Source: an uncultured Candidatus Obscuribacterales bacterium (lineage in GTDB: Bacteria; Cyanobacteriota; Vampirovibrionia; Obscuribacterales; Obscuribacteraceae). Taken from it: a stretch of DNA of 55,916 nucleotides. A program made the translations under genes and the position numbers. Location: assembly GCA_964478655.1 (NCBI GenBank), contig CAYZJR010000038.1, positions 1 through 55,916 of the forward strand, given 5' to 3'. Positions 2,550 through 55,913 of this stretch are shown here, one piece after another; within the stretch, counting starts at the first letter, position 1, and every line of letters starts with the position of its first letter. The notes below the pieces were generated by a model. It was not told the origin of the DNA. It did no database searches and worked only from the letters and a program-made list of their open reading frames with translations.

Positions 2550-3152
2550 TTATGGACCGAATCCCGACCAGCGTTCGAAAAAGATGTTGACCTTGTTGAG
2601 TATACGGAAAGTGCTGAACTCATTGTATTCGCGCCAAGTAGACATGAGCCTCGTGGCGCGTTCGATCGTGCTGATTTGATCGAATGGAACCCACACTTCT
2701 CCTCGCCACCTCGGGTCGTAATAGAAGCGATTAAGCGCATCGGTGAGGTTTACGGTGCGGTCAACGTTTAAAACATATGGCTGTCCATCCATGCGAACCG
2801 GATAGTACATTTCTTCTCCGGGCGGAGGAACAAGTTTGTCTTTTCCCGGTTCTGGCGCGGGTGGCGCAAGCAGCCGAGGAACCTTCTGTCCAATGAATAG
2901 GCGATTTGGAATCAAGTCTTTCAGTGGTGGCATGATTGAATCGTGCCGGCCCGCCTTGCTCGGGAGCAATCTTTCCGTAGCGGGATCTCTCACAGCTGGT
3001 TTGAGTGATTGCGATGCAAGGGTTGCGGAGGGTGCTTGTAAATTGTCTTGTGCCAGGGCCGATGCGGATGTTGCAGCAATTGCAATTATAGTTGAGAGGA
3101 ACAGTGAACTTGGCTTGACACTGCCTGTGGTGTTATTCGATTTTTTTGACAT
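2550..3152 (-). CDS. secreted hypothetical protein (signal peptide)
   Basis: ORF extends to 3290, but an internal Met (MSKKSNNTTGSVKPSSLFLSTIIAIAATSASALA) is followed by a clear signal peptide; no recognised domain. Confidence 0.45.
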   Translation of the reverse strand: MSKKSNNTTGSVKPSSLFLSTIIAIAATSASALAQDNLQAPSATLASQSLKPAVRDPATERLLPSKAGRHDSIMPPLKDLIPNRLFIGQKVPRLLAPPAPEPGKDKLVPPPGEEMYYPVRMDGQPYVLNVDRTVNLTDALNRFYYDPRWRGEVWVPFDQISTIERATRLMSTWREYNEFSTFRILNKVNIFFERWSGFGP

Positions 3153-3518
3153 GGATTCCTTTAGAGTAGTGGGCTCTCGAAAAGGAGTGGGCTCTGGTAG
3201 AGCAGTGGGCACTGGGGTTGACGGCGCCTTCGAGTCAGAATATGTTCCTCCGTCCTCTTGAATACCAGGAATGTTCCGATAAATATTCACTAACCGCTTT
3301 ACTTCCTCTTCTAGCCACGGCCGCTAACCCAGCCGCTTTTCAATCATCATAACGCCGAATTTTGCAGCCGTCACTGACAAATTCTCGACTTAACTTAAAT
3401 GGTTCGGCTGTCAAAGGCAGAGGCTCCTGAAGTAAACTGAGCCGCTTGGAAAAGCATGCAGTCACAGAGCTGAGCTTTGCCTGCCCAACCTGGCAACCTT
3501 CTGGATAAGTGAACGACT

Positions 3519-8957: not shown

Positions 8958-9106
8958 CTAACGCGCTCCCGACTAAGCGGGAGGCGTGGCACCACATTTA
9001 GTGCTGCCGGAGGGCGCCTTCGGGTGCCCTCTCTATCTCAAACTCTCCAGAAACGAGACCCCGAGTCGCCAGTCCAACTAACGATTCGGGGTTTGAGGAA
9101 AACAAC

Positions 9107-9586: not shown

Positions 9587-9699
9587 GTCTCGAACGAAAA
9601 CAACCATTCTTCCTGTCGCCGACGGGTGCAGCTGGAACGGTCCAGCTGCACGCCGTCGGAATTTAACTCATTTAGGTTGCTCGGCAACCAGGAGTCATC

Positions 9700-11164: not shown

Positions 11165-11388
11165 GAAGCGAGGCACTACAACTGGTGCTGCCCTCGCTCC
11201 CTTCCATCAACAACACAAAACACGGAGAACATTGCATGAACACCTTCGTTCTTCCGGCAGCGGGTGCGGTCTTCTAGGGACCGTACCGCGACTGCCCGGC
11301 TCAGTCAAAAGACTGACTGTCGCTCCACTCTGGTGCGGCAGTAATCGTTAGCCGGCCACGGTGCGGTCTTCTGAAAGGAGACTGCATT

Positions 11389-11634: not shown

Positions 11635-11886
11635 ACAACCGCCACCACTTCGCAAGAAGCGGTGGCGAGTGACTCCCTAACACTGGTTCGAGCGCCGGTC
11701 CGCGCACCGCATTCGGTGCGGGCGTGGGCCGGTGTCTCGAACTTTCGGGGTCTCAAAGCCCCATCATCTTCCTACCTTGCCCTGCAATACGACGCAATCT
11801 GCGTCGCTGGCTAAAGTCCGTGGCCGCTCTGCCACCAGTAAGCCAGGCTTGGGTGAGAGGACCAATGAGCATAAGGATTTCCAAAC

Positions 11887-13038: not shown

Positions 13039-13098
13039 CGGCGTCGACAGCTGACCGTAACCCGTTCGAGCACCGGTCGCAGCACGCCGCTGCGACCG

Positions 13099-13722
13099 GT
13101 GTCTCGGACTCTCAACTTGGCTTTTTGCGAGATAGCCTACATGACTGACAAACCATCGGGTTCGCAGCAACCGGGGCCTGGTCCAAGTAAGATTGCGACC
13201 TTGCTCGTCGGTTGGTTCTTGTATCCCGTCGGTGATTTGATCGGGCAACTGATCATGGGTCACGTCAGCATCGCCAGACTGGTTGCAGTCGCCTTGATTG
13301 GCGGATTGCTTTACCGATTCGAGGTACCGGCTTGGTTTCGCTTCATCGATGGAATTCGCGTCACGCGGACGAACGGACCACTGAGGTTGTTCGCTCGTAC
13401 GGACCAAGAGCCAGCGCCGCTCAACTGGGTGGGTCGCATGCTCATGGCCATGTTGTACTTCAACCCGCTTTGGATTGCTCGCCACCTCTTCATCATCATG
13501 GTGGTGACTGCTCCGTCGTTTGGTGCAATCGCTTGGGGCTCTACCCTTGCTGCTGTGCTTTCCCTTGGGTTGGCGTCGTTCGTTACCAATCTTCCCATCT
13601 CATTGATTGGTAATTACATCGTTCAGCAAAGACTTTCACCACAAAACCGCTTCATCGGCAGTGCCACTCTCAGCGGTGTCATGGTGATCAAGTACGCGAT
13701 CGAGTACCGACTCTTCCACTGA
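13099..13722 (+). CDS. integral membrane protein (4-5 TM)
   Basis: Hydrophobic segments; true start may be the Met at 13141. Confidence 0.45.
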   Translation: MSRTLNLAFCEIAYMTDKPSGSQQPGPGPSKIATLLVGWFLYPVGDLIGQLIMGHVSIARLVAVALIGGLLYRFEVPAWFRFIDGIRVTRTNGPLRLFARTDQEPAPLNWVGRMLMAMLYFNPLWIARHLFIIMVVTAPSFGAIAWGSTLAAVLSLGLASFVTNLPISLIGNYIVQQRLSPQNRFIGSATLSGVMVIKYAIEYRLFH

Positions 13723-15980: not shown

Positions 15981-16268
15981 GGGTCAAACTTTCTCTAACA
16001 GTGGCAGCATGTCCGAACGCCGCCAGGGTTTCGAAACCTTGACCATTGGGCGGCACCCACAGGCGCCTGATACCCAACGACCCGGAGGTGGACGACCTCC
16101 GACCCGTCTCTTAAGCACGTTCCGTCTTCCAGCCTTTTGAGCCGGAAGAAACTGATGTTTCTGAGCTATTCAGTTATTTGTTCGGGAAAGGGGCGTGCTC
16201 TTGTAGATTGAGAAGAGAACCAAGGGTTATGTCTTGAGCTACAACAAATAAGGCTCTGCGATCAAATT

Positions 16269-18734
16269 TTGATTTCAGATGTAATGACGGTATTTCCCAC
16301 TTCTTCTGATATCCTCATTACGCAAGCTGCGATAGGCAAGCCCTGTAAGGGATGTACGGGCCGGAGTTTTGTTGTGAAATTCAAAAGCGAAAGGTTGATT
16401 CTGGTTGCGTCAACCGTCGTTTTGGCGCTTGGTGCATGCACAGCATTTGTAAATCAACGCTCGGAAGCAGTTGACAAAATTCTCAATGTGGCGCAGTCGG
16501 ATGCGATCAATGGTGACAACGGCAACGCAGATAAGCACTTTCAACAAGCAATCAGTGAGGCCGAAAAAATTGAAGGGAACCAATTTCCATTGGTCGATGC
16601 GCTCAATAAATATGGCAGTTTTAAAAAGCAGTGTGGGCAGAAAATCCCCAGTAAAGCCATTTTTCAGCGAGCGCTAACGATCTGCAAACAGTTTGTCGAT
16701 GCTGACTCGACTCACGACATTTCGCATAATGAGAGTGCGAAGAACTGGATGAGACAGGCTCGGACAGCCAATCTTGGGTTGGCTGAGTGTTTTGCCGATG
16801 ATGGATCTTATCGCGTGGCCGAACGATATTTTAAAGAGACGATAAAGCTTGAGGAACGTTTGGAGAGTGTCTCCAAAGCTGACGATCGCGGTGCCTCGGC
16901 GGGAACGACGGAGAGTCTGCGCTCCACAAAGACGTTGCTGCAAGACATGTTGGACAGAGAAAGACACGAGCGCACGCTACTGGAGACAGCAATTGGAGCC
17001 GACAACGTAGGTTCTAGTATTCGAGGGAAAAACCCAAGAGCTGAGTTTGTTGGCAGAATCAAAAAGGCCCTCGACGAGCCGGATCTGTTCAAGCGCGAAA
17101 AGCTCATAGCTGCACTTGCAGACGAGGCACTCAAGAAGTATGGGCCGCGCGAAGTGGAGTACCGGCTCGCCTTAGGGAAGTTGTGGCTTACGCAGTGCCA
17201 GAACGCACAGTGGCAGAAGTCGGTCGCTATGCTTGATGCGGACCTCGAGCTCTACCCGGTATCGCTTGAAAAATTGGACGACGATGACACCCTTACTCTC
17301 ATCGAAAATGTCGAATTTTTCGTAGAAGACACTTCAATGATCTTACTGTCGTTGCGTGAGTTGAAGCGGTACGATGAGGTGCTCAAACGCGGGCAGCAAG
17401 CGCAGTTGGTTGTGCAGCGATCGCGGGTTAGCTGTCCGGTGCCGATGTCTACTGTATTGCTGGAGATGTCGCGCACCAATTCGGAACTGAAACAGTACAA
17501 AGAAGCGCAGAGGCTATTGGAAGAATCTCTGAAGCTGGTTCCGCCGATAGAGTTTATGGCAGAGCGACGAGTCGAGCTTTTGAAGGAACTGCAGCGCTGC
17601 TATCGCGACCTTAACAACTGGGCAAAGGTTAGGACGACATCGGAAGAGGGGCTGCAGGTCATCAGCCAGTATCAATTGAAATCGCCGCATGAATTGGAGT
17701 TTCTCGCGGCTCTTGATGTGGCATTTGTTCGCCTTGGCGAAACGGTCTTGGCTGATTCTGTCTATCACCGAACTCTCGATCAATACAAACTGAAGGGCGA
17801 CTTTGGTTCGGCAAGAGTGTTTTATGAGCGGGTTGCTTCTATGAGGCGAGAAGCCGGTGATAAAGCCGGCGGTTACGACACTATGAAAGATCTCGAAGAG
17901 TTTGTTGCATGCAGTACTGAACCACAGCGAGAAGTCTTGCTGGCAGAGATTCTAAAGACGAAATGTGCATGGCTTGAGGCTGATGGCCGTAGAGATGAAG
18001 CCGTGCAAGCGATAATTCGCAGCGCTGAACTTGCCACTAAATATGATGCCTCGCCGATAATGGCTGCTGCAAGACTTAACGAGGCTGAGGCAGTTTGCAA
18101 TCGAGCAGGTCGCTTTGATTTGTCTGAGAAGCTTGGACGCAAAGCCGTTTCGCTCTGTGAAAAGGGCTCCGACAACGATGGTCCGCTTGTAAGCACCTTG
18201 CTGCAGCTCTCTTACCCTTTGACGCAGCTGAAGAAATATGGCGAGCAGCGAAAGGTTGCAGAAAGAGCGCTTTCAATTGTTCAAAGCAGCAAGAACAAGA
18301 ACATTCATCCATCGCATCGTCCTTCCTGTTACGTGCGTCTTGCAAATGCGGAACTCATGCTTGCTTCAAAAGGCGGTGCAGTAAAGGACCCGTCGAAGTT
18401 AGACAAGGCGCTGAAAGACCAAGCCAGTGCGCATCAAAAAACGGCAATTGAAATGCTCTCAACGAGCGAGTTTCAAAATGATCCGGACTTGCGTCCTTCC
18501 ATCGCCGAAATCGCTTTCAACTACTCGATTCTTGGTGAGTATGAGGAGTCGCTTCGCTATTTCGAGAGATTCGCTAAAGAGTATCCCGAGCAGCAAGATC
18601 CGTTTACCTTGGAACAACTAGAAGCCTATGCCGATGTGCTGAAGAAACTTCATCGCAATGACGAGGAACAGTCGATGCGCAAGCGGATCGCCAGTATGAA
18701 AAGAGTGCTTGAGCGAGCACTGGCAGTACATTGA
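16269..18734 (+). CDS. large all-helical TPR-like repeat protein, probably a lipoprotein; true start uncertain
   Basis: LILVASTVVLALGAC lipobox-like segment near the N-terminus; low-GC codon usage; TGA stop overlaps the first tandem repeat copy. Confidence 0.55.
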   Translation: MISDVMTVFPTSSDILITQAAIGKPCKGCTGRSFVVKFKSERLILVASTVVLALGACTAFVNQRSEAVDKILNVAQSDAINGDNGNADKHFQQAISEAEKIEGNQFPLVDALNKYGSFKKQCGQKIPSKAIFQRALTICKQFVDADSTHDISHNESAKNWMRQARTANLGLAECFADDGSYRVAERYFKETIKLEERLESVSKADDRGASAGTTESLRSTKTLLQDMLDRERHERTLLETAIGADNVGSSIRGKNPRAEFVGRIKKALDEPDLFKREKLIAALADEALKKYGPREVEYRLALGKLWLTQCQNAQWQKSVAMLDADLELYPVSLEKLDDDDTLTLIENVEFFVEDTSMILLSLRELKRYDEVLKRGQQAQLVVQRSRVSCPVPMSTVLLEMSRTNSELKQYKEAQRLLEESLKLVPPIEFMAERRVELLKELQRCYRDLNNWAKVRTTSEEGLQVISQYQLKSPHELEFLAALDVAFVRLGETVLADSVYHRTLDQYKLKGDFGSARVFYERVASMRREAGDKAGGYDTMKDLEEFVACSTEPQREVLLAEILKTKCAWLEADGRRDEAVQAIIRSAELATKYDASPIMAAARLNEAEAVCNRAGRFDLSEKLGRKAVSLCEKGSDNDGPLVSTLLQLSYPLTQLKKYGEQRKVAERALSIVQSSKNKNIHPSHRPSCYVRLANAELMLASKGGAVKDPSKLDKALKDQASAHQKTAIEMLSTSEFQNDPDLRPSIAEIAFNYSILGEYEESLRYFERFAKEYPEQQDPFTLEQLEAYADVLKKLHRNDEEQSMRKRIASMKRVLERALAVH

Positions 18735-18833
18735 GCGCTGACAGTACATTACATTGACCGCTGACAGGAACATTAGCCGCTGACAGTACATTGAGCGCTG
18801 ACAGTACATTAGCCGCTGACAGTAACATTGAGA
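18723..18833. repeat. tandem array of about six 18-19 bp units (GCTGACAGTACATT + 4 nt)
   Basis: Read directly in sequence: GCTGACAGTACATT, GCTGACAGGAACATT, GCTGACAGTACATT, GCTGACAGTACATT, GCTGACAGTAACATT, each with a gagc/agcc spacer. Confidence 0.8.
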
Positions 18834-18834
18834 C

Positions 18835-18940
18835 GAACTGCAGTTCCCATTTTTGGAGAAAATGAGAACTGCAGTTCCCTGCGCTCGAACTCCCACGAAC
18901 TGCAGTTCCCATTTCTGGAGAAAATGAGAACTGGAGTTCC
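18835..18940. repeat. two 45-bp direct repeats, each carrying two copies of the perfect palindrome GAACTGCAGTTC
   Basis: gaactgcagttcccatttttggagaaaatgagaactgcagttccc, 17-nt spacer, then gaactgcagttcccatttctggagaaaatgagaactggagttcc. Confidence 0.8.
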
Positions 18941-19464
18941 GGCTCCTTTCGAGCTATCGAGTTGAGTTGGAGATTTCCAGGTAGACGATGAATCGGACTG
19001 CCGCGGTTGTCATGAGTCGCTAGCTGCGCGACCCTCATAACCAAGCCCTAGCGCTTAATTTCATGACATCCCTGCGCCGCTATCGCTCTTGACAATTTCA
19101 GATTTGCGCGAGGGATTTGGCGTTGCGAGGCGCTTGACATCTGCGTAACAATCGGCTTTTACAAAGGTTCTTTACTACTCATTTCATGTGTGATGCTTTG
19201 CCTGCATTTGGTTTTCTCTCTCCACCTCGAACAACTTTCACAAAAGCAATCCAGTTCTCCTGAAGACAGCTCAGCATCTTGCGCGCGTAGTGCGGCGATG
19301 TGACACGTCTTCTTAGAGATTGGTGTGAGAGCGGCGCCAACCATGTGCATTCCTGCGGACCTTGATGGTTGCAGGACTTGAACCCAGTGCATCCCGAAGA
19401 CCTAGCGGGCTGGGATGCGCTCAATCTTCTTGCCCGCAAACAACCTCTACTAGGAGTCAAACGA

Positions 19465-21606
19465 ATGTTCGATCAACTCGTAGGTCAGCTCTGGTGGCTG
19501 ATCCCCGCCATTCTCGGTGGCGGCACCTTCCTGTTCCTTCTCTTCACGAAGTGGCTCGTCAACGTCGGCGGTACCGAAATCGCCATCACCGAGCGTCGCT
19601 TCGTCGGTAAGGAACTCGATCCCAGCCGTGCTTTCGCCGTAGAAGGTGAAGTCGGCGTCCAGGCGCGCTATCTGGCCCCCGGCCTGAAGCCCGTCGCCTG
19701 GCCCATCGTGCGTGTCATCGCGCGTGAGCAGTTCACCGTCATCGATGCCAACGAACTCGGCATCATCGAAGCCACCGACGGCGCGTCACTGCCGTCCGGT
19801 CGTATCTTCGCGGAAGACGCCGCCGGCGAGCACCACGACAACTTCCAGGAGCCGCTTGCGTTCCTGAAGAATGGTGGTATCCGCGGTACGCAGCTGCGCT
19901 TCCTCACCAACGGTCAGTTCAAGATCCACCCGCGGCTGTTCAAGCTGACGAAGATCCAGAAGACCGTCGTGCCCGAGGGCATGATCGGTATCGTGTCCGC
20001 CGCTGACGGCGCCCCGCTCGATCCCGGCCAGCTGGTCGGTCGCTCGGTCCAGGGTCACGACAACTTCCAGAAGGCGGAAGTTTTCCTCCGCAACGGCGGT
20101 CAGAAGGGTCCGCAGGTCGACTTCCTGCGTCCCGGTACCTACAACATCCACACCGGCATGTTCAAGGTCGAGTTCCAGAAGGCTGTGAAGATCGGCGACG
20201 GTCAGATCGGCGTGGTCGAAGCGCTCGGTGGCGAGGCAATGCCCGTTGGCGACGTCGTTGCCGACAGCCCGAACGGCCACAACAACTTCCAGAACGGCGA
20301 AAAGTTCCTCAGCGACGGCGGCAAGCGTGGTCCGCAGACGGCGATTCTCGCCCCCGGTACTTACTACATCAACCCCTTCCTGTTCACGGTCCAGACGCGG
20401 ACTCAGACCGTCGTGAAGCAGGGTGAAGTGGCTGTGCTCATCGCCAACCACGGCAAGGACCCCGCCAGCGAGCCCCAGGCGCCAGTGAACCCCGGCCCGG
20501 TCGAAGGTCAGGCGCAAGATCCGGAAGAGACCCGTCTCAACCAGGAGAACCGTCAGCGTCACGTGGTGCCCGCCGGCTATCGCGGCATCCAGAAGGATGT
20601 CCTCGGCCCCGGTCGCTACAACATCAACCCGCTCGTCTACCAGGTCGTGATCGTTCCGACGACCACGCGCTCGGTGGAATGGGCTGGTGCCGCAGGCAAG
20701 GGTAACGCCGGCAACTTCGATCCGTTCGAGGTCGTCTCCAACGACGGCTTCCCGATGAAGGTCGAAGTGCGCTGCCAGTACCGCGTGCTGCCCGAGAATG
20801 CCCCGTACGTCATCGCCAAGCTCGGCTCCATCGAGGAGCTGGAGAAGAACGTCATCGACCCGCAGATCGACGGTATCTTCCGCGCCGAGGTGTCCAAGTC
20901 GCCCGCCATCGCCTATCAGCAGAAGCGTGCTGAAGAGCAGAAGAAGGCGGAAGACGAAGTGCGCGGCGACCTGGCGAAGTACAAGGTGGAAGTGGTCTCG
21001 GTCATGATCACCAACATCCACCTGCCGGAACAGCTGATGAAGACCACTCAGCAGAAGAACCTCGCTGAGCAGGAGAAGTCGATGTACGACGCGAAGCGTG
21101 ACGCCGAACAGCAGCGCATCGCGTACGAGCAGACTCGCGCCCAGGCGGAGAACCAGGGCAAGATCATCGAGGCCAAGACGGGCATCGAGATCGCCGAGCA
21201 CAAGGCTGCCCAGAAGGTCAAGGAAGCGGAGGGCGAGGCCCAGCGCATCCTGAAGGTCGCCGAAGCGGAAGCGAAGCGTACCGAGCAGATCGGTAACGCC
21301 GAAGCGGCGGTCATCGAGAGCAAGGGTAAGGCGCAAGCCGAAGCCTATCGCCTCGGTGGTCAGGCGCTGACCCCGGGTGGTCTGACGTCGGTCGAGGTGG
21401 TCAAGGCGATCGCTGCGGCTGGTCTGAAGATCGTTCCCGACGTGATGGTCACCGGCGGCGGTGACGGCGACGGCGGCGCCAACGGCGGCCTCGTCAACCT
21501 GCTGCTCGCCAACGCCGTGAAGAACGGTCTCGGTGGGTCCGCGACGGCCGCGGCTCCGGCCGAGGCGCCTGTTGCGCCGGCTGCCGAAGGCGGCGAGAAG
21601 TCCTAA
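19465..21606 (+). CDS. flotillin-like SPFH/band-7 protein with N-terminal TM and four internal repeats of about 75 aa
   Basis: Repeated HDNFQx...FL(K/R)NGGxRGxQ...PGTYxINP modules; C-terminal coiled-coil AEAEAKR...AEAY typical of flotillin/YqiK; start at MFDQLV with aggag RBS. Confidence 0.75.
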   Translation: MFDQLVGQLWWLIPAILGGGTFLFLLFTKWLVNVGGTEIAITERRFVGKELDPSRAFAVEGEVGVQARYLAPGLKPVAWPIVRVIAREQFTVIDANELGIIEATDGASLPSGRIFAEDAAGEHHDNFQEPLAFLKNGGIRGTQLRFLTNGQFKIHPRLFKLTKIQKTVVPEGMIGIVSAADGAPLDPGQLVGRSVQGHDNFQKAEVFLRNGGQKGPQVDFLRPGTYNIHTGMFKVEFQKAVKIGDGQIGVVEALGGEAMPVGDVVADSPNGHNNFQNGEKFLSDGGKRGPQTAILAPGTYYINPFLFTVQTRTQTVVKQGEVAVLIANHGKDPASEPQAPVNPGPVEGQAQDPEETRLNQENRQRHVVPAGYRGIQKDVLGPGRYNINPLVYQVVIVPTTTRSVEWAGAAGKGNAGNFDPFEVVSNDGFPMKVEVRCQYRVLPENAPYVIAKLGSIEELEKNVIDPQIDGIFRAEVSKSPAIAYQQKRAEEQKKAEDEVRGDLAKYKVEVVSVMITNIHLPEQLMKTTQQKNLAEQEKSMYDAKRDAEQQRIAYEQTRAQAENQGKIIEAKTGIEIAEHKAAQKVKEAEGEAQRILKVAEAEAKRTEQIGNAEAAVIESKGKAQAEAYRLGGQALTPGGLTSVEVVKAIAAAGLKIVPDVMVTGGGDGDGGANGGLVNLLLANAVKNGLGGSATAAAPAEAPVAPAAEGGEKS

Positions 21607-21860
21607 GCAACTGAAGGGCAACAACTATGCTGAGGTTGACTAACGAAAGTTAGTAGTCCGGTATAGCCTTCTGTTGCAAGTCGGTGGGGGCAACGCTTGC
21701 AAGAAAGTGGAAGAGATTTCACTTATGTGAGCGTTGCTCGTCTCCCGACGGAAGAGCGAGGAGCGGCAGGCAGTATCAGGCGAAAGCTTGTGCTGCTTGC
21801 CGTTTCCTCGTCTCTTTTACATTTCAAACGTTCATCGAAGTTTAACCAGGAGAATTTACC

Positions 21861-24092: not shown

Positions 24093-24124
24093 CAGAGCCT
24101 TGGAGTCATAGCCTCGGGCAGAGG

Positions 24125-24177
24125 TGGCACTTCGCTGTGTGAAAACGCAGCGAGGGTGCCATCTTCTGCTTTTTTGT
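24125..24177 (+). terminator. rho-independent terminator after pth
   Basis: ggcacttcgctg...cagcgagggtgcc hairpin + cttctgcttttttgtcc. Confidence 0.5.
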
Positions 24178-26880: not shown

Positions 26881-26930
26881 GAAAGCGGGCGAAACCATCA
26901 GGCTTTTGACCTAACGGAATCGCCCGCTCC
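26881..26930. repeat. conserved 50-nt hairpin element, copy A (AGCGGGCGA ... TCGCCCGCT stem, 29-nt loop)
   Basis: gaaagcgggcgaaaccatcaggcttttgacctaacggaatcgcccgctcc; lies at the 3' end of a minus-strand gene. Confidence 0.6.
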
Positions 26931-33837: not shown

Positions 33838-33939
33838 GAATAGGTGACGCGCTCGTGACAAGAATTTTCACGTAACTGCGTCATCTCTCCCTTCCGGGCC
33901 TCGCGTCTCCTCACCGAGCGCGGGGCCTGGAAGTTCTAT

Positions 33940-35347: not shown

Positions 35348-36796
35348 CTATTTCTCTGTTTGATAAGCAACCGACATAAAGCGCTTCTTGAACTGTTCGT
35401 ATGTAACTTTTTCCTTGTGTCCCCATGGATTATAGAGCGTCAAGGTTCCACCATTTGCACCATCGCGATCGAAGTCTAGGACGCTGTAGACGTGGTTTGT
35501 CACGTCCGAGATTCCGGTGCTTTTCCAGTTCTTTTGCCAAGCAACCACGGCAGTTTTCTCTTGCAAATCTTTGCCTACAGTCTCTTCAAGTTTTCTTTTC
35601 GTCATTCGATCCTCGTTGCCCAGGCTGGTCGGAGTCCAATGAAGCAGTGGAGTTGGGTTTGCGAGCCAGTCTTGATCGGAATCTTTTCCCGTCAGCAGGT
35701 GAATCAAATGTGCAAGGCGATGTCCTCCGCCATTGGCGCCTTCGGACGGAAGGTTGCCACCGCTCCAATTGGTGAAGATTTCCCGTCTAAACAGTTTCTT
35801 TTGGCAATATGTTCCATATGCTTTTTCGATGATCGGCGCCCATGTCCCTTTGTCGGCGGCCCCGAGAAACATTCCGCGTTCTGCTTCGGTTATTGGTTGA
35901 ACTGTGATTGGTTCGTCGGTGTCGCCTGGGAATGTAACAGTGAAGGAACCATCAGGGTTTTCGCAGATCATGTCTTTGATCGATTGGGGATTGGTCTGAG
36001 CGATCGCTGCGAGTGTTGAAACGAAATAGCAGTCACCCATTAAGCCTTGTTCGATGCCATAGATTCCAACATTTTTCTTTTCGGCATCCTCTCCTTCTCC
36101 AAACAACGACGATATGCCGATGGATTGGGCCTCGTGAGTGCGAGTAAGAACCAGATCAATTTCGTTGAGGAACTGATCGCTTTTGTCACCCATGTCGTTC
36201 TTTACGAAGTAAGTGAGTACATCGCTGACTTTGACTGGATCTTCGGGATCATCATTGTTTATGTAATATTGGAACAGTTTCTTTTCATCATCCGGAAGCT
36301 TCCCGGATTTGACCGCAGTTTCAAGTTCACCTTTCGAGAGAATGCCGTCTGCGTCTGTGTCGTGAGATGAAAGGGCCTTGAGAGAGTATGAGTTTTGTTC
36401 GATTTGTTTCTCATTGAAAAGTGCGCGAGTTTCTTTCAAATCGTCTTTGGTAATGCCTTTTGAATCGTTGTCTAGAAACCAGGTTGCATCGTCGTCCTGT
36501 TTTCGAATGTTCTTTCTGTTCCAATAGAGAGCCGCAATAGTCTGTGCGGTTTCGCCTTTGTTCTGCGGATCTTCGACGGCTTTTGCCAGTTCGTCATAGC
36601 GCAGCACACCGTCTTCATCTTTGTCTAGCGTGTCAAATAGCGCTTCTGCCTTGTCGAGAAACTCTGCCATGGATAGTCGATGTGGTTTGCCTTTTTGGTA
36701 CTCGGATGCATCAAATCCTGACGGTGGCTGAGCTTTGGAAGTAGAGCCGGAGTCAGTCGCATCTTGTGCGCCTCTGTGAAAACCCTGGAAAAACAT
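35348..36796 (-). CDS. calpain-like (C2 family) cysteine protease with two N-terminal EF-hand Ca-binding loops
   Basis: EF-hand loops DKDEDGVLRYDEL and DTDADGILSKGEL; calpain active-site blocks QGLMGDCYFVSTLAAIA (Cys) and NHVYSV...LYNPWG (His/Asn); start at MFFQ with gaggtg RBS. Confidence 0.7.
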   Translation of the reverse strand: MFFQGFHRGAQDATDSGSTSKAQPPSGFDASEYQKGKPHRLSMAEFLDKAEALFDTLDKDEDGVLRYDELAKAVEDPQNKGETAQTIAALYWNRKNIRKQDDDATWFLDNDSKGITKDDLKETRALFNEKQIEQNSYSLKALSSHDTDADGILSKGELETAVKSGKLPDDEKKLFQYYINNDDPEDPVKVSDVLTYFVKNDMGDKSDQFLNEIDLVLTRTHEAQSIGISSLFGEGEDAEKKNVGIYGIEQGLMGDCYFVSTLAAIAQTNPQSIKDMICENPDGSFTVTFPGDTDEPITVQPITEAERGMFLGAADKGTWAPIIEKAYGTYCQKKLFRREIFTNWSGGNLPSEGANGGGHRLAHLIHLLTGKDSDQDWLANPTPLLHWTPTSLGNEDRMTKRKLEETVGKDLQEKTAVVAWQKNWKSTGISDVTNHVYSVLDFDRDGANGGTLTLYNPWGHKEKVTYEQFKKRFMSVAYQTEK

Positions 36797-37512
36797 GCTT
36801 ACACCTCTGAGAAAAACGTCTGGGGTGTCGACTGAGTTGAGTTGGCGGGGTGTAGTGCGATTGTGGCGGTGCAATCTAACAATGACGTAACAGACTCGCA
36901 CTCCCGATTCTGCGCTTAAGGGGGCTGCTCCTAAGGCATACCTTGGGTTCGGGGCACTGAAATTATGCCCGTGGGTTATATCTTGACTTGGACAACCTAT
37001 GACTGTGGGTCATACCTTGGCATGTACCTCTTGCAAGCCGTTCCTTCAGCGGATTCTCGTACCGCAAGCAGCGAAGAGAGCGGTGCTTGGCAGCCATTCC
37101 TTGCCTAGCTTCGCTATAGGCTACTTGATTTTGGATGCTCGAAAGTTGGGTGCTTGAGAACTCCCATTGTTGTTTGATTTCACTGCCTTTCTGGAGTCTT
37201 GGCATGGCTAGTGCTTCTTGAAAACAAGAAAATGGCCCTTTAAAGGCCTCTAGAGAGAAAGATTTCAAGTTTCCTTAATTGAAAAGAGATGTGAAAGAGC
37301 CGTAACTTTCATAAGTTCCTTTCTAGTTTTTTTCTTTGGGCTTTAGACCTAACAAGCACTGTAATTGAGCGTTCAACGCGATAGCTTTCGATCACACGGA
37401 GTATTTAGCCGTGGCGGTTGATCTTCTCTGTTCGCGTTTGGTATCGCCTGCGGTGCTCTGCTAGCGGTTAAGTCCAAGTCTCATTCGCAAAAAACCTCAC
37501 AGGAGGTCAACA

Positions 37513-38562: not shown

Positions 38563-38697
38563 GCGCTCGCTTACGAAACGTTTCTTGATTCTAAGGCGAG
38601 CGGTTCCTTCACCGACTGGTGAGTGAACCGCCGCCTGCTTTGTGTCACCACTTCCGGTGGCACTCAATTTGGGAAAGTTTTCCCGGAGTGACAACAT

Positions 38698-41772: not shown

Positions 41773-41804
41773 CTCTTCTGCGCGACATTTGTTGCGAGAA
41801 AGGC

Positions 41805-41858
41805 GGCGGGGCCCTGCAAACCACAATTGTGGAGCAGGGCCCCGCTTTCCTTTTTTTA
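41805..41858. terminator. bidirectional rho-independent terminator between convergent genes
   Basis: gcggggccctgc...gcagggccccgc hairpin + tttcctttttttacc. Confidence 0.65.
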
Positions 41859-44960: not shown

Positions 44961-46220
44961 TTGCTTGCAGTACGACCTACAACATCTTTTCTTATGAAAC
45001 AACTATTGGCATTGTGGCTGCCTTTGGCGGCTTGCTGCCTTGCCCTGGCTGCATGCAAGCCTCGGCAGGAGCGGACGCTTGTGGTGCAAGTTCTCAATAC
45101 GGAGCAGCGAGAGCTGACTCCGCTTGGACTGGTGCGCAAGGTATATGACTTTGAAGGGCACCTCGTCGAGCATCACTTTCCGTATCCGGACGGCGGTTAC
45201 GCGCATGTGATTTATCGAAGTGATGGAACAGTGGCGGCAACTCTCGAGGATTACCCGAGTCAGCCTGGCGCATTGGCGCCTGTTCGTAAGAGCGAGGCTG
45301 AGTTTGCAGAGGATGGAAAGACCGTGCTTTTGGGCAAGGCGTATCGCCTTGATGGCAGTCTGAGAATGGTTCGGCGCGCGTCACCGGACGGGCGCTGGAG
45401 CGACGAAGACTACCTCCCAAGCGGTCGGCAGGCGTTTAAATCGCAGCGAAACCCGGATGGTTCTTGGGAGATCACTTGCCTTCGCGTCGACGGCACCCGA
45501 GACTCAGTCGTGCTTGTGCGCAGGAGTAAAGTCGACAACGAGTCTTCGGAAGGTTCTGAACCCGAGCCGAAAGTGGTGTGGATCGACTGTTTCGATGCCG
45601 CCGGAACGGTTCGTCTTTGCCACCAAGCGTTTGCCGAAGAAGGCGAGACAATCGACCCTCTTCAGCCGCTTGCCGGTGGAACGGGCGCAATGAACGGCAG
45701 CAAGGAAGCCGGGCGTTTGGTATTCTTCTACGGCAAGGGCAGCATCGCGAGTCACTATCAGTGGTGGCGAGCAGGGCGAACCGACAATGCAGATGGCGAG
45801 GAGTTTACGCTTGAAATTGTCGGACAGTTCAAGAACACGGAGCTTGTTCGGCGCTTCTTTGTCGATGATCTTGGTGACGAGGTTTCAGTCACGAAGGTGG
45901 AACGGCAGGAAGAATTGGCTGAGTTTCCCAAAGTGTCGAGTTGGCCTGAAGACTCGGAGTCAGGGCTGCCAATTGAAACTTGGGTGGGGGGCAAGACTCG
46001 TTCGCTTTTGTTCGACGAGTTTTGCGAACTAAAAGACATGTCCGGCAAGCGACTCGCAACAGCAACTTCGCAAGAAAAAGAAACTGTAGACACGCGACTC
46101 TTCATGCGACCTCCGGGGTCGCTTTATCCTGTGCTAAATGAAGAGTTGGCGCAAGACGACGTCCAGTGGATTGGAGAGCAGGATTCTAAGAACCCTTGCC
46201 ACTGGTATCACAATTTGTGA
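44961..46220 (+). CDS. lipoprotein with MORN-variant repeats (paralogous architecture to 38698-39765)
   Basis: LPLAACCLALAACKP lipobox; RSDGTV, YRLDGSL, SPDGRWS, NPDGSWE repeats. Confidence 0.55.
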   Translation: MLAVRPTTSFLMKQLLALWLPLAACCLALAACKPRQERTLVVQVLNTEQRELTPLGLVRKVYDFEGHLVEHHFPYPDGGYAHVIYRSDGTVAATLEDYPSQPGALAPVRKSEAEFAEDGKTVLLGKAYRLDGSLRMVRRASPDGRWSDEDYLPSGRQAFKSQRNPDGSWEITCLRVDGTRDSVVLVRRSKVDNESSEGSEPEPKVVWIDCFDAAGTVRLCHQAFAEEGETIDPLQPLAGGTGAMNGSKEAGRLVFFYGKGSIASHYQWWRAGRTDNADGEEFTLEIVGQFKNTELVRRFFVDDLGDEVSVTKVERQEELAEFPKVSSWPEDSESGLPIETWVGGKTRSLLFDEFCELKDMSGKRLATATSQEKETVDTRLFMRPPGSLYPVLNEELAQDDVQWIGEQDSKNPCHWYHNL

Positions 46221-46237
46221 CCTCAACTAAACAGCTT

Positions 46238-47395
46238 ATGATATTCACAATTCTTTTCCAGCTGACCGATTTGCGTCTGACGGAGCCGCACTGGCTCTGG
46301 CTTGCGTTGGTTGCGCCGGCTCTCGTTATTTTGAGAAAACGTCTGCGCATTGCCTTTGCGCACACGTCGACTTCCATTCACAAAGCCACACGCAATCGCG
46401 ATTGGACCGGGGTGTTCGTCGCCGTCTTGCTGGTGGTTTCATGGGCATCGTTCTGCATCGCGCTGACGAAGCCTCGCCTCGTGCATCAGGAGATGCGGCG
46501 CACTCTCAATGCCCGCGACTTCGTGATCGGTATCGATCGCTCTGGTTCGATGTTTGCCTCGGACATCAAGAATCCGCAGCTTCGTCAGGAAATCGACGCT
46601 TTCGCCGAGGGGCTGGCCAAGCAGGAAAAGGCGATGCGCGAGGCGTACCCCAAGCTTTATCCGTATCCCCCGGATGCACCTCAAGCGACGGTCGCCGCCG
46701 ATCATGTGAGGCGGTTCGACTTGGCTCGCTATGCGGCGTTCAAGTTTCTCGGCAGTCGTCCCCAGGGTGATCGAGCGGCGCTCTTCACCTTCGACGACGA
46801 TGTTTATTGGGCGTGGCCACTGGGTTCTGACCTCAATGTCGTTTCGCGAAAGACTGAGGAGTTGTCGACGTCTAAGCAAGGCGGAGGCACTAACTTCGAA
46901 GGTCCGACGCAGAACAATCCGAGGCAAGGCGCCTTTCAAGCCACGATCAATCACCTGGAAAAGCTCGCGAAAGCCAAAACGCGAGTACTCATCTTCGTCT
47001 CCGACGGCGACGCCGGAATCAGCCCGGAGCGCCATCAAGCGCTTGTCGAGCAAATGAAGAGGGAGAATCAGGAGATTCACATCTTCGCGCTTGTTTGCGG
47101 CGCCAAGACACAGTTGGACAACGCAAGCACTCAATCGCTCCGCAAGCTGGTTGAAGCGGTGAATCCGCAAAACTGGCACGACAGCAAAGGCGAAAAGGTC
47201 GATGCCGTGCTGTGGGCCGGTGATGGTGAAGCGATGAAGAGCGCCTTCGCGCGCATCAACGAACTCGAGAAGTCGGCCGTAGAGCTTGAACCGATCGAGG
47301 GTTTCAAGGACGTGACGTTTCAATTCATTCTGCTTGGGGCACTCAGCCTTGCGGGGTTGCTCGTCGCGTGCACACTACTTAACGAGAACTTCTAA
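46238..47395 (+). CDS. BatA-like von Willebrand factor A domain membrane protein
   Basis: N-terminal TM pair, VIGIDRSGSM MIDAS motif, C-terminal TM. Confidence 0.65.
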   Translation: MIFTILFQLTDLRLTEPHWLWLALVAPALVILRKRLRIAFAHTSTSIHKATRNRDWTGVFVAVLLVVSWASFCIALTKPRLVHQEMRRTLNARDFVIGIDRSGSMFASDIKNPQLRQEIDAFAEGLAKQEKAMREAYPKLYPYPPDAPQATVAADHVRRFDLARYAAFKFLGSRPQGDRAALFTFDDDVYWAWPLGSDLNVVSRKTEELSTSKQGGGTNFEGPTQNNPRQGAFQATINHLEKLAKAKTRVLIFVSDGDAGISPERHQALVEQMKRENQEIHIFALVCGAKTQLDNASTQSLRKLVEAVNPQNWHDSKGEKVDAVLWAGDGEAMKSAFARINELEKSAVELEPIEGFKDVTFQFILLGALSLAGLLVACTLLNENF

Positions 47396-47401
47396 TGTCT
47401 T

Positions 47402-48124
47402 ATGAAAATCATTCGTTATGTTGGTTTGGCTGTCGCAGTCCTCTCTCTGGACGGCGTCATCGCCTACCGCCTGCATGAAGGCAGTGCCACCGAATATGAC
47501 GCCATGGCGTTTGTCGGTGTGCTTGCCGCTCTTCTGTTTCTACTTGCGCTCAAGACGCTGAGGAATCGGCTTGCGCGTGCCACGGCGCTTGTTTCCGGAT
47601 TGGCGCTCGCCTTGTCCGGTGCGGCGCTTTTGACGCAGACCGCTCCACAAGTCGGCGTTTACAATAACGCCATTGTTTCGATGCAGGAGGGCGACCTTCT
47701 GCAAGCCATAAAGCTCTTCGATGAGAGCGTGACGATTCACAAGAAGCTGGCCGAACGCCCGCTGCTTGCTCGTTTGATCTCGCCGAAAGTGCGAAATGAC
47801 TTTGAGGCACTGGCGTTGTTTCACAAGGCAAACTGTCTCGTTAAGCTCAACAAAGGCAAAGAGGCAGTCGATGCTTTGAAGAAGTCACTGCAGTCAAACC
47901 CCGGCAACTGCTATGAAGGGCTTGATCTGTCCGCCGCGCAACGACGTTATCTCGAAGCGCTGGAGGCTCAGTCCAATCTGGAGAAGCTCTTCAAGAGCGG
48001 GCAGGGTGGTGGACACGCAACTGGTCCCGGAGGCGGGCAAGGGCAGCCTCAGCCGGGTCAACAACCCGGGCGCGAACGTCAGCCGCAGCCGGGTGCGGGC
48101 AAACAAGAGCGCGACGCGCTGTAA
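47402..48124 (+). CDS. BatC-like TM + TPR protein with Gly/Gln/Pro-rich tail
   Basis: N-terminal TMs, TPR repeats, low-complexity C-terminus. Confidence 0.55.
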   Translation: MKIIRYVGLAVAVLSLDGVIAYRLHEGSATEYDAMAFVGVLAALLFLLALKTLRNRLARATALVSGLALALSGAALLTQTAPQVGVYNNAIVSMQEGDLLQAIKLFDESVTIHKKLAERPLLARLISPKVRNDFEALALFHKANCLVKLNKGKEAVDALKKSLQSNPGNCYEGLDLSAAQRRYLEALEAQSNLEKLFKSGQGGGHATGPGGGQGQPQPGQQPGRERQPQPGAGKQERDAL

Positions 48125-48141
48125 CCTCAACTTCTCATTGT

Positions 48142-49329
48142 ATGTTTCAAATACTTCAAGACATACACTTCGAGCGACCAGGTTTTGTCATCTGGTCGCC
48201 GCTAGTGGTTTTGGCCGTGTTCGCACTCGGCTTCATCGCGCACCGCATTCGGTGTGCTGTCAGAAACAGCTACGCAAGCGACGCGCTGCTTTCTCGCACA
48301 ACGCGACTGCCGAAGCCGATATCTCATTGGCTTTCGGTGATCGGGTGGCAGTCCGCAGCTTTCTTTGCCTGCGTCGGACTCTCCGGGCCGTTCCAACCAA
48401 ATAGACCCATCACTCTGCCTGAGGGCAGTTTGCATGTTGTGGCGGTGTTCGATGTGTCGTTAAGCATGGCTTGCGAAGATTACCGCTTCGTCTTGCCGAC
48501 TCCTGATGGTGCGCCGCCCTTGGGTCCTTGGGGCAGTCGTTTGCAGATGGCAAAGCGAACGTTTGTCGACCAGGTGTTCAAGACGATTCCCGGCAACAAG
48601 GTTGGGCTCGTCACGTACACTGGTGATGGCTACCCGCAAGCGCCGCTTTGCCAGGACTATGCGACACTGAAGTACATCATGACCGACACCGGTTGGATGG
48701 GCATCAACAGCGCCCCGGGCAGCGGCTCTGACTATGTCGAGGGACTTAAGTGTGCACTGGACACTTTGCGGCGAGACTTTGACCCTGGCAAAAGGCAAGT
48801 AATCATGCTGTTTTCGGACGGCGGCTTGCCTGACTTCAAATCTGCTGACGATAAAGCGCATTGGCAGGAGGACCTTCAGAAAACTGTCGCGGAGCTAGAT
48901 GCACTGCGGCAGCAGAGTGGAGGGAACTTGACTGTGGTTGTCGTCGGAGTCGGAGACACGCAACCGCAGATGGTGCCGGTTTATGACCCGCGCACGCTCC
49001 AGCGCGCTGATTGGCACCCGATCGGTAAGCCCGAGAAATCTCAGACCGCCCTCGACGAGGATGTGTTGAAAGACCTCGCTGCACAGACGAAGGGCGTCTA
49101 TGTCTGGCTGCCGACTGATGCCGACTCGGCGAAGGTTCCTGTGGATTGGGTAAAGGCAGTGGGTGGAACCAAAGAGTCCGAAGGCAAGTTGTCCCTTGCC
49201 TGTTATCCGCTTGCGGCGACTATGTTGCTGTTCGCGGTGCTTCTTGCTAGAGGTCTGGTTAGCCGCCGCGACAGTGTGCGGCGAGTCACGCTGAAAGCCT
49301 CGTTTCTAAATGAACAAACTGGTCGCTAA
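48142..49329 (+). CDS. BatB-like vWA domain membrane protein
   Basis: TMs, VAVFDVSLSM MIDAS, C-terminal TM. Confidence 0.65.
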   Translation: MFQILQDIHFERPGFVIWSPLVVLAVFALGFIAHRIRCAVRNSYASDALLSRTTRLPKPISHWLSVIGWQSAAFFACVGLSGPFQPNRPITLPEGSLHVVAVFDVSLSMACEDYRFVLPTPDGAPPLGPWGSRLQMAKRTFVDQVFKTIPGNKVGLVTYTGDGYPQAPLCQDYATLKYIMTDTGWMGINSAPGSGSDYVEGLKCALDTLRRDFDPGKRQVIMLFSDGGLPDFKSADDKAHWQEDLQKTVAELDALRQQSGGNLTVVVVGVGDTQPQMVPVYDPRTLQRADWHPIGKPEKSQTALDEDVLKDLAAQTKGVYVWLPTDADSAKVPVDWVKAVGGTKESEGKLSLACYPLAATMLLFAVLLARGLVSRRDSVRRVTLKASFLNEQTGR

Positions 49330-49348
49330 CTTCTAACTTCTCAGACAC

Positions 49349-50395: not shown

Positions 50396-50418
50396 TTTGG
50401 TCTACAACCTCAAATACT

Positions 50419-51408: not shown

Positions 51409-51438
51409 GTTGTTCCAGCCGAATTAACCATTGAGCCT

Positions 51439-55810: not shown

Positions 55811-55866
55811 GCGGAAAAATACCTGTCTGAAGCCAGAGTACACGGATTGTAACCGCAGCGCAAAGC

Positions 55867-55913
55867 GGGTCCGGCAGTGGGAAACTGCTGCCGGACCTGG
55901 CTTTTGCGTCTTT
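55867..55913 (+). terminator. rho-independent terminator
   Basis: gggtccggcag...ctgccggacc hairpin + tggcttttgcgtcttt. Confidence 0.55.

Follow-up and report, generated by a model that had tools for sequence, protein, structure and literature searches.

We report that the spacer after a TPR-repeat lipoprotein gene in an uncultured Candidatus Obscuribacterales bacterium carries two adjoining head-to-tail repeats that are specific to this species: an 18-bp tandem array overlapping the stop codon of the gene, which varies in copy number between strains, and a 62-bp repeat that folds into two stable hairpins. With moderate confidence we interpret the two as a young pair of tandem duplications that arose in the weakly conserved spacer behind the TPR gene through slippage or unequal recombination and is still being remodelled, the hairpin present twice being a candidate 3'-end stem-loop. 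The locus is best read as an ordinary local repeat expansion and not as a regulator-binding array or a mobile element. The stretch of DNA that was analysed, an entire NCBI contig of 55,916 nucleotides, is referred to below as the window.

Anatomy of the repeat locus

The features of the locus are listed in Table 1. A first-pass annotation of this DNA had described a composite repeat here, and with small corrections it proved to be real and non-random: none of 100 dinucleotide shuffles of the window contained four matches to either motif (18-bp unit or palindrome), the TRF scores of the head-to-tail repeats (113, 135 and 112) indicate repetition beyond chance, as in VNTRs and minisatellites, and four assemblies agree on the sequence (see below).

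Table 1. Coordinates of the repeats and neighbouring features in the window
Feature	Position	Strand	Basis or remarks
TPR-repeat lipoprotein gene	16284..18734	+	ORF and translation; Pfam TPR_12 and other TPR families
18-bp tandem array	18720..18834	+	6 units; TRF, repeat finding, hand split in the window and L066
TGA stop codon of the TPR gene	18732..18734	+	within unit 1 of the 18-bp array
62-bp unit x1.75 (31-bp sub-period x3.4)	18833..18940	+	hairpin, 19-nt linker, hairpin; TRF, repeat finding, motif scan
Hairpin 1	18835..18877	+	19-nt arms GAACTGCAGTTCYCATTTT, 5-nt loop TGGAG; inverted repeat 95% complementary
21-codon ORF	18862..18927	+	MRTAVPCARTPTNCSSHFWRK then stop; ATG in one 62-bp unit, stop from the overlapping ATGA of the next
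Linker between the hairpins	18878..18896	+	19 nt, CCTGCGCTCGAACTCCCAC; occurs once in the window
Hairpin 2	18897..18939	+	second copy of hairpin 1, changed at two bases: T>C in arm, C>G in last palindrome
GAGTT-GAGTT-GGAG micro-repeat	18959..18972	+	5-bp deletion in the ~99.4% strain (L002, L005)
Conserved non-coding block before the flotillin-like gene	19003..19464	+	~460 nt, outside the repeats; four-species alignment
Flotillin-like SPFH/Band_7 gene	19465..21606	+	713 aa

TRF placed the first array at 18715-18832 with a period of 18, 6.2 copies, 76% matches and 18% indels, and splitting by hand gave units at 18720-18737, 18738-18760, 18761-18779, 18780-18797, 18798-18815 and 18816-18834, with lengths of 18, 23, 19, 18, 18 and 19 nt; the 23-nt unit owes its length to a 5-nt ACATT insertion. 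Six copies of the 18-bp sequence had been annotated, and there are indeed six units, but only three match GCTGACAGTACATT exactly, a fourth having two mismatches and the remaining two a 1-nt insertion. That the array begins within the last codons of the lipoprotein gene is borne out by unit 1, which reads CTG GCA GTA CAT TGA GCG, i.e., L-A-V-H-stop or about the last four codons of the gene, and is identical to the consensus unit at 17 of 18 positions. As RNA the array folds no better than its shuffles (z = -0.33).

The second array comprises two direct repeats (18833-18878 and 18895-18940, 96% identical), each of 46 nt and not 45 as first annotated, which TRF reports as a period of 31 in 3.4 copies, equal to a 62-bp unit in 1.75 copies. 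The palindrome GAACTGCAGTTC occurs in it four times, perfectly at 18835, 18866 and 18897 and as the mismatch copy GAACTGGAGTTC at 18928; the earlier statement of two perfect palindromes per repeat holds for the first repeat and not for the second, and their spacing, given then as about 31 bp, is exactly 31 bp. Hairpins 1 and 2 start 101 and 163 nt past the TPR stop codon, respectively, and are the only strong + strand hairpins after this gene. Hairpin 1 has an RNA dG of -24.9 kcal/mol (z = -6.2; an equally good fold in 0 of 200 shuffles) and hairpin 2 of -19.3 kcal/mol (z = -3.5). There are four palindromes in 31-bp phase because the palindrome stands at the beginning and at the end of each 19-bp stem. 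Rather than independently selected sites, the four are the outcome of a single tandem duplication and pair up as two stems.

The 21-codon ORF created by the repeats, also annotated earlier, can be read from the sequence; it is their by-product and probably not coding. The units abut without unique spacers, in line with the earlier judgement that the locus is not CRISPR-like. A search against Rfam at gathering and permissive thresholds yielded nothing beyond sub-threshold miRNA-precursor noise, to which the hairpins gave rise. Avoidance of the restriction site CTGCAG was considered and rejected, since this hexamer is not depleted (22 observed, 26 expected).

The locus in other strains and species

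Logan assemblies of four different runs (L001, L006, L007 and L065) carry the locus without a single base difference; outside it, L001 and L065 show 47 and 6 substitutions relative to the window, respectively. Runs of the window type are SRR12808457/60, SRR12822861 and SRR17828883. Because these four assemblies are independent the locus is not an assembly artefact, a possibility that the first-pass annotation had raised. Logan contigs are built from k-mer graphs with k = 31, and that four such assemblies traverse the locus suggests that no other locus has a long exact stretch in common with it.

Copy number does vary among strains, a point that the same annotation had singled out for comparison. 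The 18-bp units number six in the window and in the four assemblies above vs seven in L066 (99.4% identical overall), where the unit variants are also reshuffled, and as these strains are related the 18-bp array is a VNTR, behaving as a minisatellite prone to slippage does. Gap openings fall within 18768-18970 in three of three cases in L066 (5.5 kb) and in one of three in L002 (12.7 kb). The contigs of the ~99.4% strain, to which runs SRR29398965/66 and SRR31912326 belong, are interrupted within the 62-bp repeat in no fewer than three runs (L066 ends at ~18902, L002 and L005 start at 18911), and these breaks may reflect a change in the copy number of the 62-bp unit. The deletion in the micro-repeat (Table 1) is a further slippage-type indel; contig L003 begins just past this micro-repeat, at window position 18974. 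In three other strains, 99.8-99.95% identical, the locus is unchanged, and it is not hypermutable.

Three related species (L008, L062 and L064) have neither array in the syntenic spacer. Their sequence is conserved from window position 19003 onward, which sets the downstream limit of the variable spacer holding both arrays, and the spacer measures 560 nt in L008 vs 730 nt in the window. The C-termini of the TPR protein differ by species (...ERALAVH, ...ALAR and ...EWK), and the length difference between species is confined to this end. The best folds after the TPR gene in sister species have dG values of -21.7 and -19.6 kcal/mol. A seed for the 18-bp unit was sought in the post-stop sequence of a sister species, TGAGACGAGTGACAGGGAAC, and the local alignment was not significant (p about 0.1), its score being equalled by 201 of 2000 shuffles and 51 of 436 real segments; the idea of an ancestral seed was therefore dropped as evidence for a local origin.

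Flanking genes and spacer

Read from the ATG at 16284 the TPR gene encodes 816 residues, and the GTG at 16374 is the likelier start, giving 786 residues and MKFKSERLILVASTVVLALGAC with a lipobox; gene calls in independent assemblies comprise both lengths. From the end of the repeats to the start of the flotillin-like gene the distance is 525 bp, close to the roughly 500 bp annotated before. Among named homologues, the best matches to the flotillin-like protein come from Planctomycetaceae MAGs (63-64% identity), homologues from Bdellovibrionales, Myxococcaceae and Micavibrio score almost equally, and a MoxR search gave no closer named relative.

Neither a transposase, an integrase, a RAYT, LexA nor an HTH regulator was found in the 56 kb (Pfam hits of 46 window proteins, either scanned directly or annotated in L001). 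Rep, ParA, ParB and ParR are likewise absent from the window, the neighbourhood consisting of chromosomal housekeeping genes, and with no adjoining rep or par genes the repeats do not qualify as iterons or as a plasmid centromere (parC, parS).

Searches for further copies

Allowing up to 1-3 mismatches, no copy of the palindrome or of the 18-bp unit was found outside the locus in the 56-kb window, which was the part of the bacterium's own genome searched and amounts to about 1% of a typical genome, and 10 related loci held no further copies of either array. The GTDB representative collection, to which the window's own genome does not belong, was scanned with the paired palindromes, and all seven matches were rejected as unrelated (pairs in coding sequence, other hairpins and two unrelated arrays). 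The neighbours of two bacterial arrays that share the core (L014 and L015) include no DNA-binding protein common to both.

The same scan of JGI metagenomes gave a raw count of 44 contigs, none with the same flanks, loop or linker. About 30 of the 44 are of low GC with few ORFs and carry satellites of period 31-44 that have only the GGAACTGCAGTTCC core in common with the locus. The ORFs on these satellite contigs encode reverse transcriptase and GIY-YIG proteins typical of eukaryotic retroelements, and the contigs were rejected as relatives and taken as host DNA; their sample identifiers may denote termite gut. IMG/VR searched with three patterns, and plasmids and phages searched with blastn, gave no match, and a literature search for the 12-mer palindrome returned primer sequences only. 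A generic REP element at many loci, which the first-pass annotation had envisaged as a counter-explanation, was thus not seen in the window, the related loci or the databases searched.

Stem-loops at gene ends

When 50-nt folds in the window are ranked by stability, 12 of the top 20 prove to be intergenic; 10 of these 12 lie on the sense strand 25-155 nt past a stop codon, the other two being terminator-like hairpins at other gene ends. Each of these intergenic folds is unique in sequence and long-stemmed, several have T tracts, and sister species show the same placement of 3' stem-loops. A long 3' stem-loop after most genes is a habit of this genome.

With 19-bp stems at +101 and +163 nt the two GAACTGCAGTTC hairpins conform to this local pattern, the second lying just past the ~25-155 nt range; compared with the other 3' stem-loops in the window they have a higher AT content and fold less stably (-25 vs -30 to -50 kcal/mol). 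They differ from canonical intrinsic terminators in having no T tract, their tails being CCCUGCGC and CGGCUCCUUUCG, and a promoter/terminator scan predicted no site on the + strand. Since the sister species have no strong hairpin after the TPR gene, those described here may be functionless.

Discussion

We suggest that both arrays were made, and are still reshaped, through replication slippage or unequal recombination. The first array would have arisen by head-to-tail amplification of an 18-nt segment holding the last four codons of the TPR gene together with its stop. Inclusion of the stop in the amplified segment would explain why the array overlaps it, and the extra copies past the stop are untranslated, so that their number can drift (six or seven). 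The second array would be a duplication of a 62-bp segment made up of one long stem-loop and a linker. If the hairpins function at all, they would most likely serve as the 3'-end hairpin of the TPR transcript, where they may terminate or pause transcription, or protect the 3' end of the mRNA, ahead of the conserved flotillin promoter/leader.

An explanation that we find possible, though clearly the less probable, is that both arrays are slippage products without any role and that the hairpins neither terminate nor stabilise. None of the related species has the arrays, or a strong 3' hairpin after its TPR gene, the hairpins here lack a T tract, the locus varies between strains and the 18-bp array is unstructured, all of which would be expected of neutral sequence; against this, the position and geometry of the hairpins match those of the 3' stem-loops after most genes here, and the locus is unchanged among strains separated by as many as 47 substitutions over 22 kb. 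It is unlikely that the repeats are a dispersed palindromic element of the REP/BIME or MITE type, with copies elsewhere in the genome, that inserted at the 3' end of the gene and was then tandemly reiterated. Inverted palindrome pairs with alternating linkers at a gene 3' end do recall BIMEs, REP clusters are often tandemly reiterated together with flanking DNA and are strain-variable (PMC3733652), and the searchable part of the genome was only about 1% of a typical one. However, neither the 56-kb window nor the 10 related loci contain another copy, not even a degenerate one, and none with the same flanks or loop occurs in GTDB representatives, JGI metagenomes, IMG/VR, plasmids or phages, and the k-mer-graph assemblies pass straight through the locus. 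Dispersed copies of a REP number from tens to thousands per genome. REPs are imperfect palindromes of 20-40 bp with a stem of 5-13 bp, one end of which bears a GTAG or CGTC tag that stays unpaired (PMC3733652), whereas the stem here is 19 bp and a consistent tag is missing, CGTC standing beside the first palindrome only (minus strand) and CGTG or nothing beside the others. The arms could be TIRs as in a MITE, but the flanks (GAGAC/.../CCTGC, .../CGGCT) show no direct repeat and there are no other copies. With no target-site duplication, and no RAYT (Y1 transposase), other transposase or integrase in the 56 kb, the miniature mobile or recombination site proposed in the first-pass annotation is not supported.

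The operator array for a dimeric regulator, also proposed there, fares no better, and we regard it as quite unlikely that the palindromes are four phased operators for a dimeric repressor, with LexA as the candidate, that control the flotillin-like operon or titrate the repressor. In its favour, all four fit GAAC-N4-GTTC and are the sole such sites in the 56 kb, two of them read CGAAC...GTTCC, the type of the extended Bacillus LexA consensus, and the exact 31-bp phasing corresponds to about three helical turns. In Firmicutes, Actinobacteria and Gallionellales this motif serves as the LexA box (PMC4951493), and it may not be that of the host; the one PVC phylum studied uses TGTTC-N4-GAACA instead (PMC4951493). 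With eight specified bases, four or more matches were also obtained in 4 of 100 shuffles, the centre is TGCA vs the AT-rich centre of the Cheo box, and the four sites stem from one duplication. They are absent from the orthologous spacer in L008, L062 and L064 though the real upstream region is conserved there, the conserved TTGACA boxes follow only some ~250-300 bp downstream of them, and no regulator gene and no SOS gene (lexA, recA, imuA, uvrA) is present in the 56 kb, the neighbours being the TPR lipoprotein and flotillin-like genes. That the palindromes are real dimeric-repressor sites, perhaps for the LexA of a poorly sampled lineage, which were multiplied by tandem duplication into an operator or titration array that varies by strain and lies upstream of the flotillin-like operon, is in our view very unlikely. 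Hardly credible is a small protein encoded by the repeats, either the 21-codon ORF or a 146-aa minus-strand ORF (18604-19044): both are present in the sequence and GGAG stands 3 nt ahead of the ATG, but they owe their existence to the repeat itself and occur in none of the relatives, a different product of 13 aa results from the second repeat copy, there is overlap between the minus-strand ORF and the TPR gene, and no assembly has a gene called here.

Local repeat expansion, the reading that we prefer, places the locus among bacterial VNTRs and minisatellites, which it resembles in its 18- and 62-bp head-to-tail units in an intergenic spacer, its six vs seven copies and its reshuffled variants. 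The intergenic MIRU-type loci of mycobacteria, which are used in MLVA typing, are described as abutting or overlapping the upstream stop codon and creating a small ORF, as does the array here. MIRUs, however, form a dispersed family of about 40 loci per genome, while a single locus is known here and its second array, a hairpin, has only 1.75 copies. Non-coding satellites in prokaryotes (PMC6749651) are also among the closest known systems. With the REP clusters or BIMEs of Escherichia coli and Pseudomonas (PMC3733652) the locus shares inverted palindrome pairs, short alternating linkers, location at a gene 3' end, tandem reiteration and strain variability, and the roles proposed for BIMEs are termination and mRNA stabilisation; it differs in its 43-nt hairpin with a 19-bp stem, in having no GTAG/CGTC tag, in that no RAYT gene was seen and in that no other copies were found where searched. 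Like intrinsic or tandem terminators it has a stable sense-strand stem-loop 100-160 nt past the stop, in the long-stem style of the window; unlike them its hairpins have no U tract, are of lower GC and stability than their neighbours and are not conserved in sister species. The fit of all four sites to the Gram-positive LexA (SOS) box (PMC4951493), and the occurrence of tandem LexA sites elsewhere, are set against sites that are not at an SOS promoter, are not conserved and are copies of one duplication.

The finding is of little importance outside this genome. It illustrates cleanly that a tandem array can grow from the terminal codons of a gene and that a 3' stem-loop can be duplicated, and as a VNTR it can serve to tell strains of this uncultured species apart. 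When a single hairpin is duplicated, regularly phased perfect palindromes can result from the geometry, and they are therefore not by themselves evidence for an operator array. More rewarding, probably, are the ~460-nt leader that is conserved before the flotillin-like gene and the very long 3' stem-loops found genome-wide.

Anatomy and strain variation of the repeat locus

The locus between the TPR lipoprotein gene and the flotillin-like gene consists of two tandem duplications, species-specific and variable between strains, whose anatomy was read directly from the sequence and with TRF and a repeat finder (see table). The TPR gene ends with CTG GCA GTA CAT TGA (L-A-V-H-stop), and unit 1 of the 18-bp array is these 15 bases plus GCG; the array thus overlaps the stop codon, as the first-pass annotation had reported. 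The units follow the pattern CTGRCAG-TACATT-GAGCG, or have an AGCCG ending, and as RNA the array is without structure (z = -0.33).

The adjoining segment had been described as two 45-bp direct repeats with two perfect palindromes each. The direct repeats are present but are best described as 1.75 copies of a 62-bp unit, and three palindromes (GAACTGCAGTTC) are perfect while the fourth, GAACTGGAGTTC, carries one mismatch; the spacing across all four is exactly 31 bp. Each 45-mer is an inverted repeat with 19-nt arms (GAACTGCAGTTCYCATTTT) flanking a 5-nt loop, with RNA folds of -24.9 and -19.3 kcal/mol (z = -6.2 and -3.5). The stem of the duplicated hairpin starts and ends with the palindrome, hence the four palindromes and their phasing. 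Within the 56-kb window, the palindrome and the 18-bp motif are confined to this locus, and dinucleotide shuffles never reached the observed count of either.

The window is an entire NCBI MAG contig. That the locus is a real feature is borne out by Logan assemblies of four other runs (L001, L006, L007 and L065), where it is base-for-base identical; outside it, 47 substitutions separate L001 from the window and 6 separate L065. A variant strain (~99.4% identical), present in at least three runs, has seven 18-bp units versus six in the window, with the unit variants reordered, so the comparison of copy number between strains did reveal variation. All three gap openings in a 5.5-kb contig of this strain fall inside the array, and there is an additional 5-bp slippage indel in a GAGTT-GAGTT micro-repeat. 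Its contigs stop at ~18902 or start at 18911, both within the 62-bp repeat, which suggests that this repeat may be heterogeneous. In three other strains (99.8-99.95% identical) the locus is unchanged; it is variable, not hypermutable.

Coordinates of the repeat locus and of other features
Feature	Location	Description
TPR gene stop codon	18732-18734	within unit 1 of the array
18-bp array	18720-18834	six head-to-tail units: 18, 23, 19, 18, 18, 19 nt
62-bp repeat	18833-18940	x1.75, directly 3' of the 18-bp array; TRF: period 31 bp x3.4
Perfect palindromes	18835, 18866, 18897	GAACTGCAGTTC
Mismatched palindrome	18928	GAACTGGAGTTC
Micro-repeat with slippage indel	18959-18972	variant strain
Conserved block	19003-19464	~460 nt, non-coding
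Inverted repeat in block	19005-19015, 19061-19071	GGTTGTCATGA ... TCATGACATCC
TTGACA boxes in block	19089-19094, 19134-19139	invariant
Stable stem-loops 1 to 6	8983-9032, 9613-9662, 11251-11300, 11689-11738, 13063-13112, 21760-21809	
Stable stem-loops 7 to 12	24118-24167, 26881-26930, 33886-33935, 38590-38639, 41800-41849, 55858-55907	
Second 18-bp tandem repeat	3162-3215	x3, TAGAGCAGTGGGCTCTGG, partly palindromic unit
Calpain-type protein	35348-36901 (- strand)	517 aa
Bat/MoxR-type operon	46196-52566	MoxR ATPase - DUF58 - VWA - TPR
L015 (Ruminococcus sp. MAG)	884-1315	72-bp unit x ~6; 11 exact cores in all
L014 (Bacteroidetes MAG)	1620-1825	21/42-bp units
JGI satellite contigs		L020, L026, L033-L036, L039, L041-L043, L048, L051, L052, L054-L059

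Comparison with related species

Both repeats are missing from the syntenic loci of three related species (L008, L062 and L064, the last with a different upstream gene), and the TPR-to-flotillin spacer, 730 nt long in the window, is shorter in L008 (560 nt) and L062 (404 nt). From 19003 to the flotillin start, conservation is strong across the four species. This places the repeats in the non-conserved spacer 3' of the TPR gene, outside the conserved stretch that precedes the flotillin-like gene. That non-coding block is conserved despite the different upstream gene in L064, seemingly more so than the adjacent TPR protein (73% amino acid identity). It contains an inverted repeat, two TTGACA boxes and an invariant GGCTTTTACAAAGGTTCT; from the four sequences RNAalifold predicted several helices, with compensatory changes in 14 pairs, and there was no Rfam match. 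The block may comprise a promoter and a long structured leader.

Homologues of the TPR protein form just two other clusters among 5.8 billion sequences (73% and 45% identity). Close relatives of the flotillin-like protein are 93%, 90% and 90% identical to it, and its best named relatives are from Planctomycetaceae MAGs (63-64%), with other phyla scoring similarly. The TPR protein is evolving far more rapidly than its neighbours (73% identity with the sister species versus 93% for the flotillin-like protein), and its gene is a low-GC island (16000-19000; 0.49-0.51 versus 0.57-0.64 on either side). Translation probably begins further downstream than annotated (ATG 16284 or TTG 16269), and with GTG 16374 as start the protein has a canonical lipoprotein signal peptide.

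Other features of the window

The second 18-bp tandem repeat sits within an ORF (2550-3290, - strand) without Pfam match. The calpain-type cysteine protease domain (Peptidase_C2, E = 3.7e-8) of the 517-aa protein is accompanied by weak EF-hand matches, a predicted combination that is eukaryote-like and unusual in a bacterium. The nearest non-self homologue of the MoxR ATPase has just 61% identity, indicating a poorly sampled lineage.

Palindrome arrays in other sequences

Many low-GC JGI hits were rejected as relatives, being ORF-poor satellites near reverse-transcriptase and GIY-YIG ORFs that share only the 14-bp core with the locus. About 30 such contigs hold at least ten tandem-satellite families (periods 21-44 bp, most often 31) with the 14-bp palindrome GGAACTGCAGTTCC as common core and unrelated flanks, and given the nearby ORFs they are probably eukaryotic host DNA. 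Two unrelated bacterial MAGs, L015 and L014, carry intergenic tandem arrays on the same core. These are not CRISPRs, having no unique spacers, and the adjacent genes (Stealth, ABC transporter, DUF5618, LRR) are uninformative.

Origin and possible role of the repeats

The first-pass annotation had proposed a miniature mobile or recombination site, or an operator array for a dimeric regulator. The former, like any dispersed element, finds no support: no further copies (up to 3 mismatches) occur in the window or ten related loci, and the paired-palindrome pattern matched only unrelated sequences in GTDB representative genomes and JGI metagenomes and nothing in IMG/VR, plasmids or phages, collections outside which the organism's own genome lies (~60 kb of it was examined). 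The locus lacks both a target-site duplication and a consistent GTAG/CGTC tag (as defined in PMC3733652), and the genes for the window's proteins include none for a transposase, integrase, RAYT, Rep/Par or regulator. As to operators, the palindrome matches the LexA box GAAC-N4-GTTC known from Firmicutes, Actinobacteria and Gallionellales (PMC4951493), a consensus from other groups that may not be the host's, and the four sites are its only matches in the window. However, just eight bases of the box are specified, and an equal number of hits arose in 4 of 100 shuffles; moreover, the sites are copies of each other, are not conserved among relatives and have no SOS gene nearby, so that LexA-type operators seem improbable.

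For the 18-bp array, the coding unit 1 suggests a VNTR seeded at the TPR stop codon. The C-terminus of the TPR protein varies in length by species (...ERALAVH, ...ALAR, ...EWK), consistent with an array that grew out of, or rewrote, the last codons. Because the resemblance of the sister species' post-stop sequence to the 18-bp unit was not significant, we infer this origin rather than regard it as proven.

The 62-bp duplication is probably a duplicated 3' stem-loop. When every 50-nt window was folded on both strands, 12 of the 20 most stable folds were intergenic; ten of these are on the sense strand, 25-155 nt past a stop codon, and the remaining two resemble terminators and sit at other gene ends. 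Each is unique in sequence and long-stemmed (dG -30 to -50 kcal/mol), T runs follow several, and the sister species L008 has the same habit behind the same genes. From these predicted folds, most genes of the organism evidently end in a long stem-loop, and unusually long terminator-like hairpins may be used genome-wide. Since the two GAACTGCAGTTC hairpins, starting +101 and +163 nt from the stop, are the only strong sense-strand hairpins of the TPR gene, we propose that they could serve it as terminator, pause site or 3'-end protector. A purely neutral origin of the repeats is a serious rival to this role, because the hairpins are less stable and richer in AT than the window's other stem-loops and without T tract, and no strong hairpin lies behind the TPR gene in the sister species. 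Taken as a whole, the locus adds one more example to a known class of features and is of low general significance.
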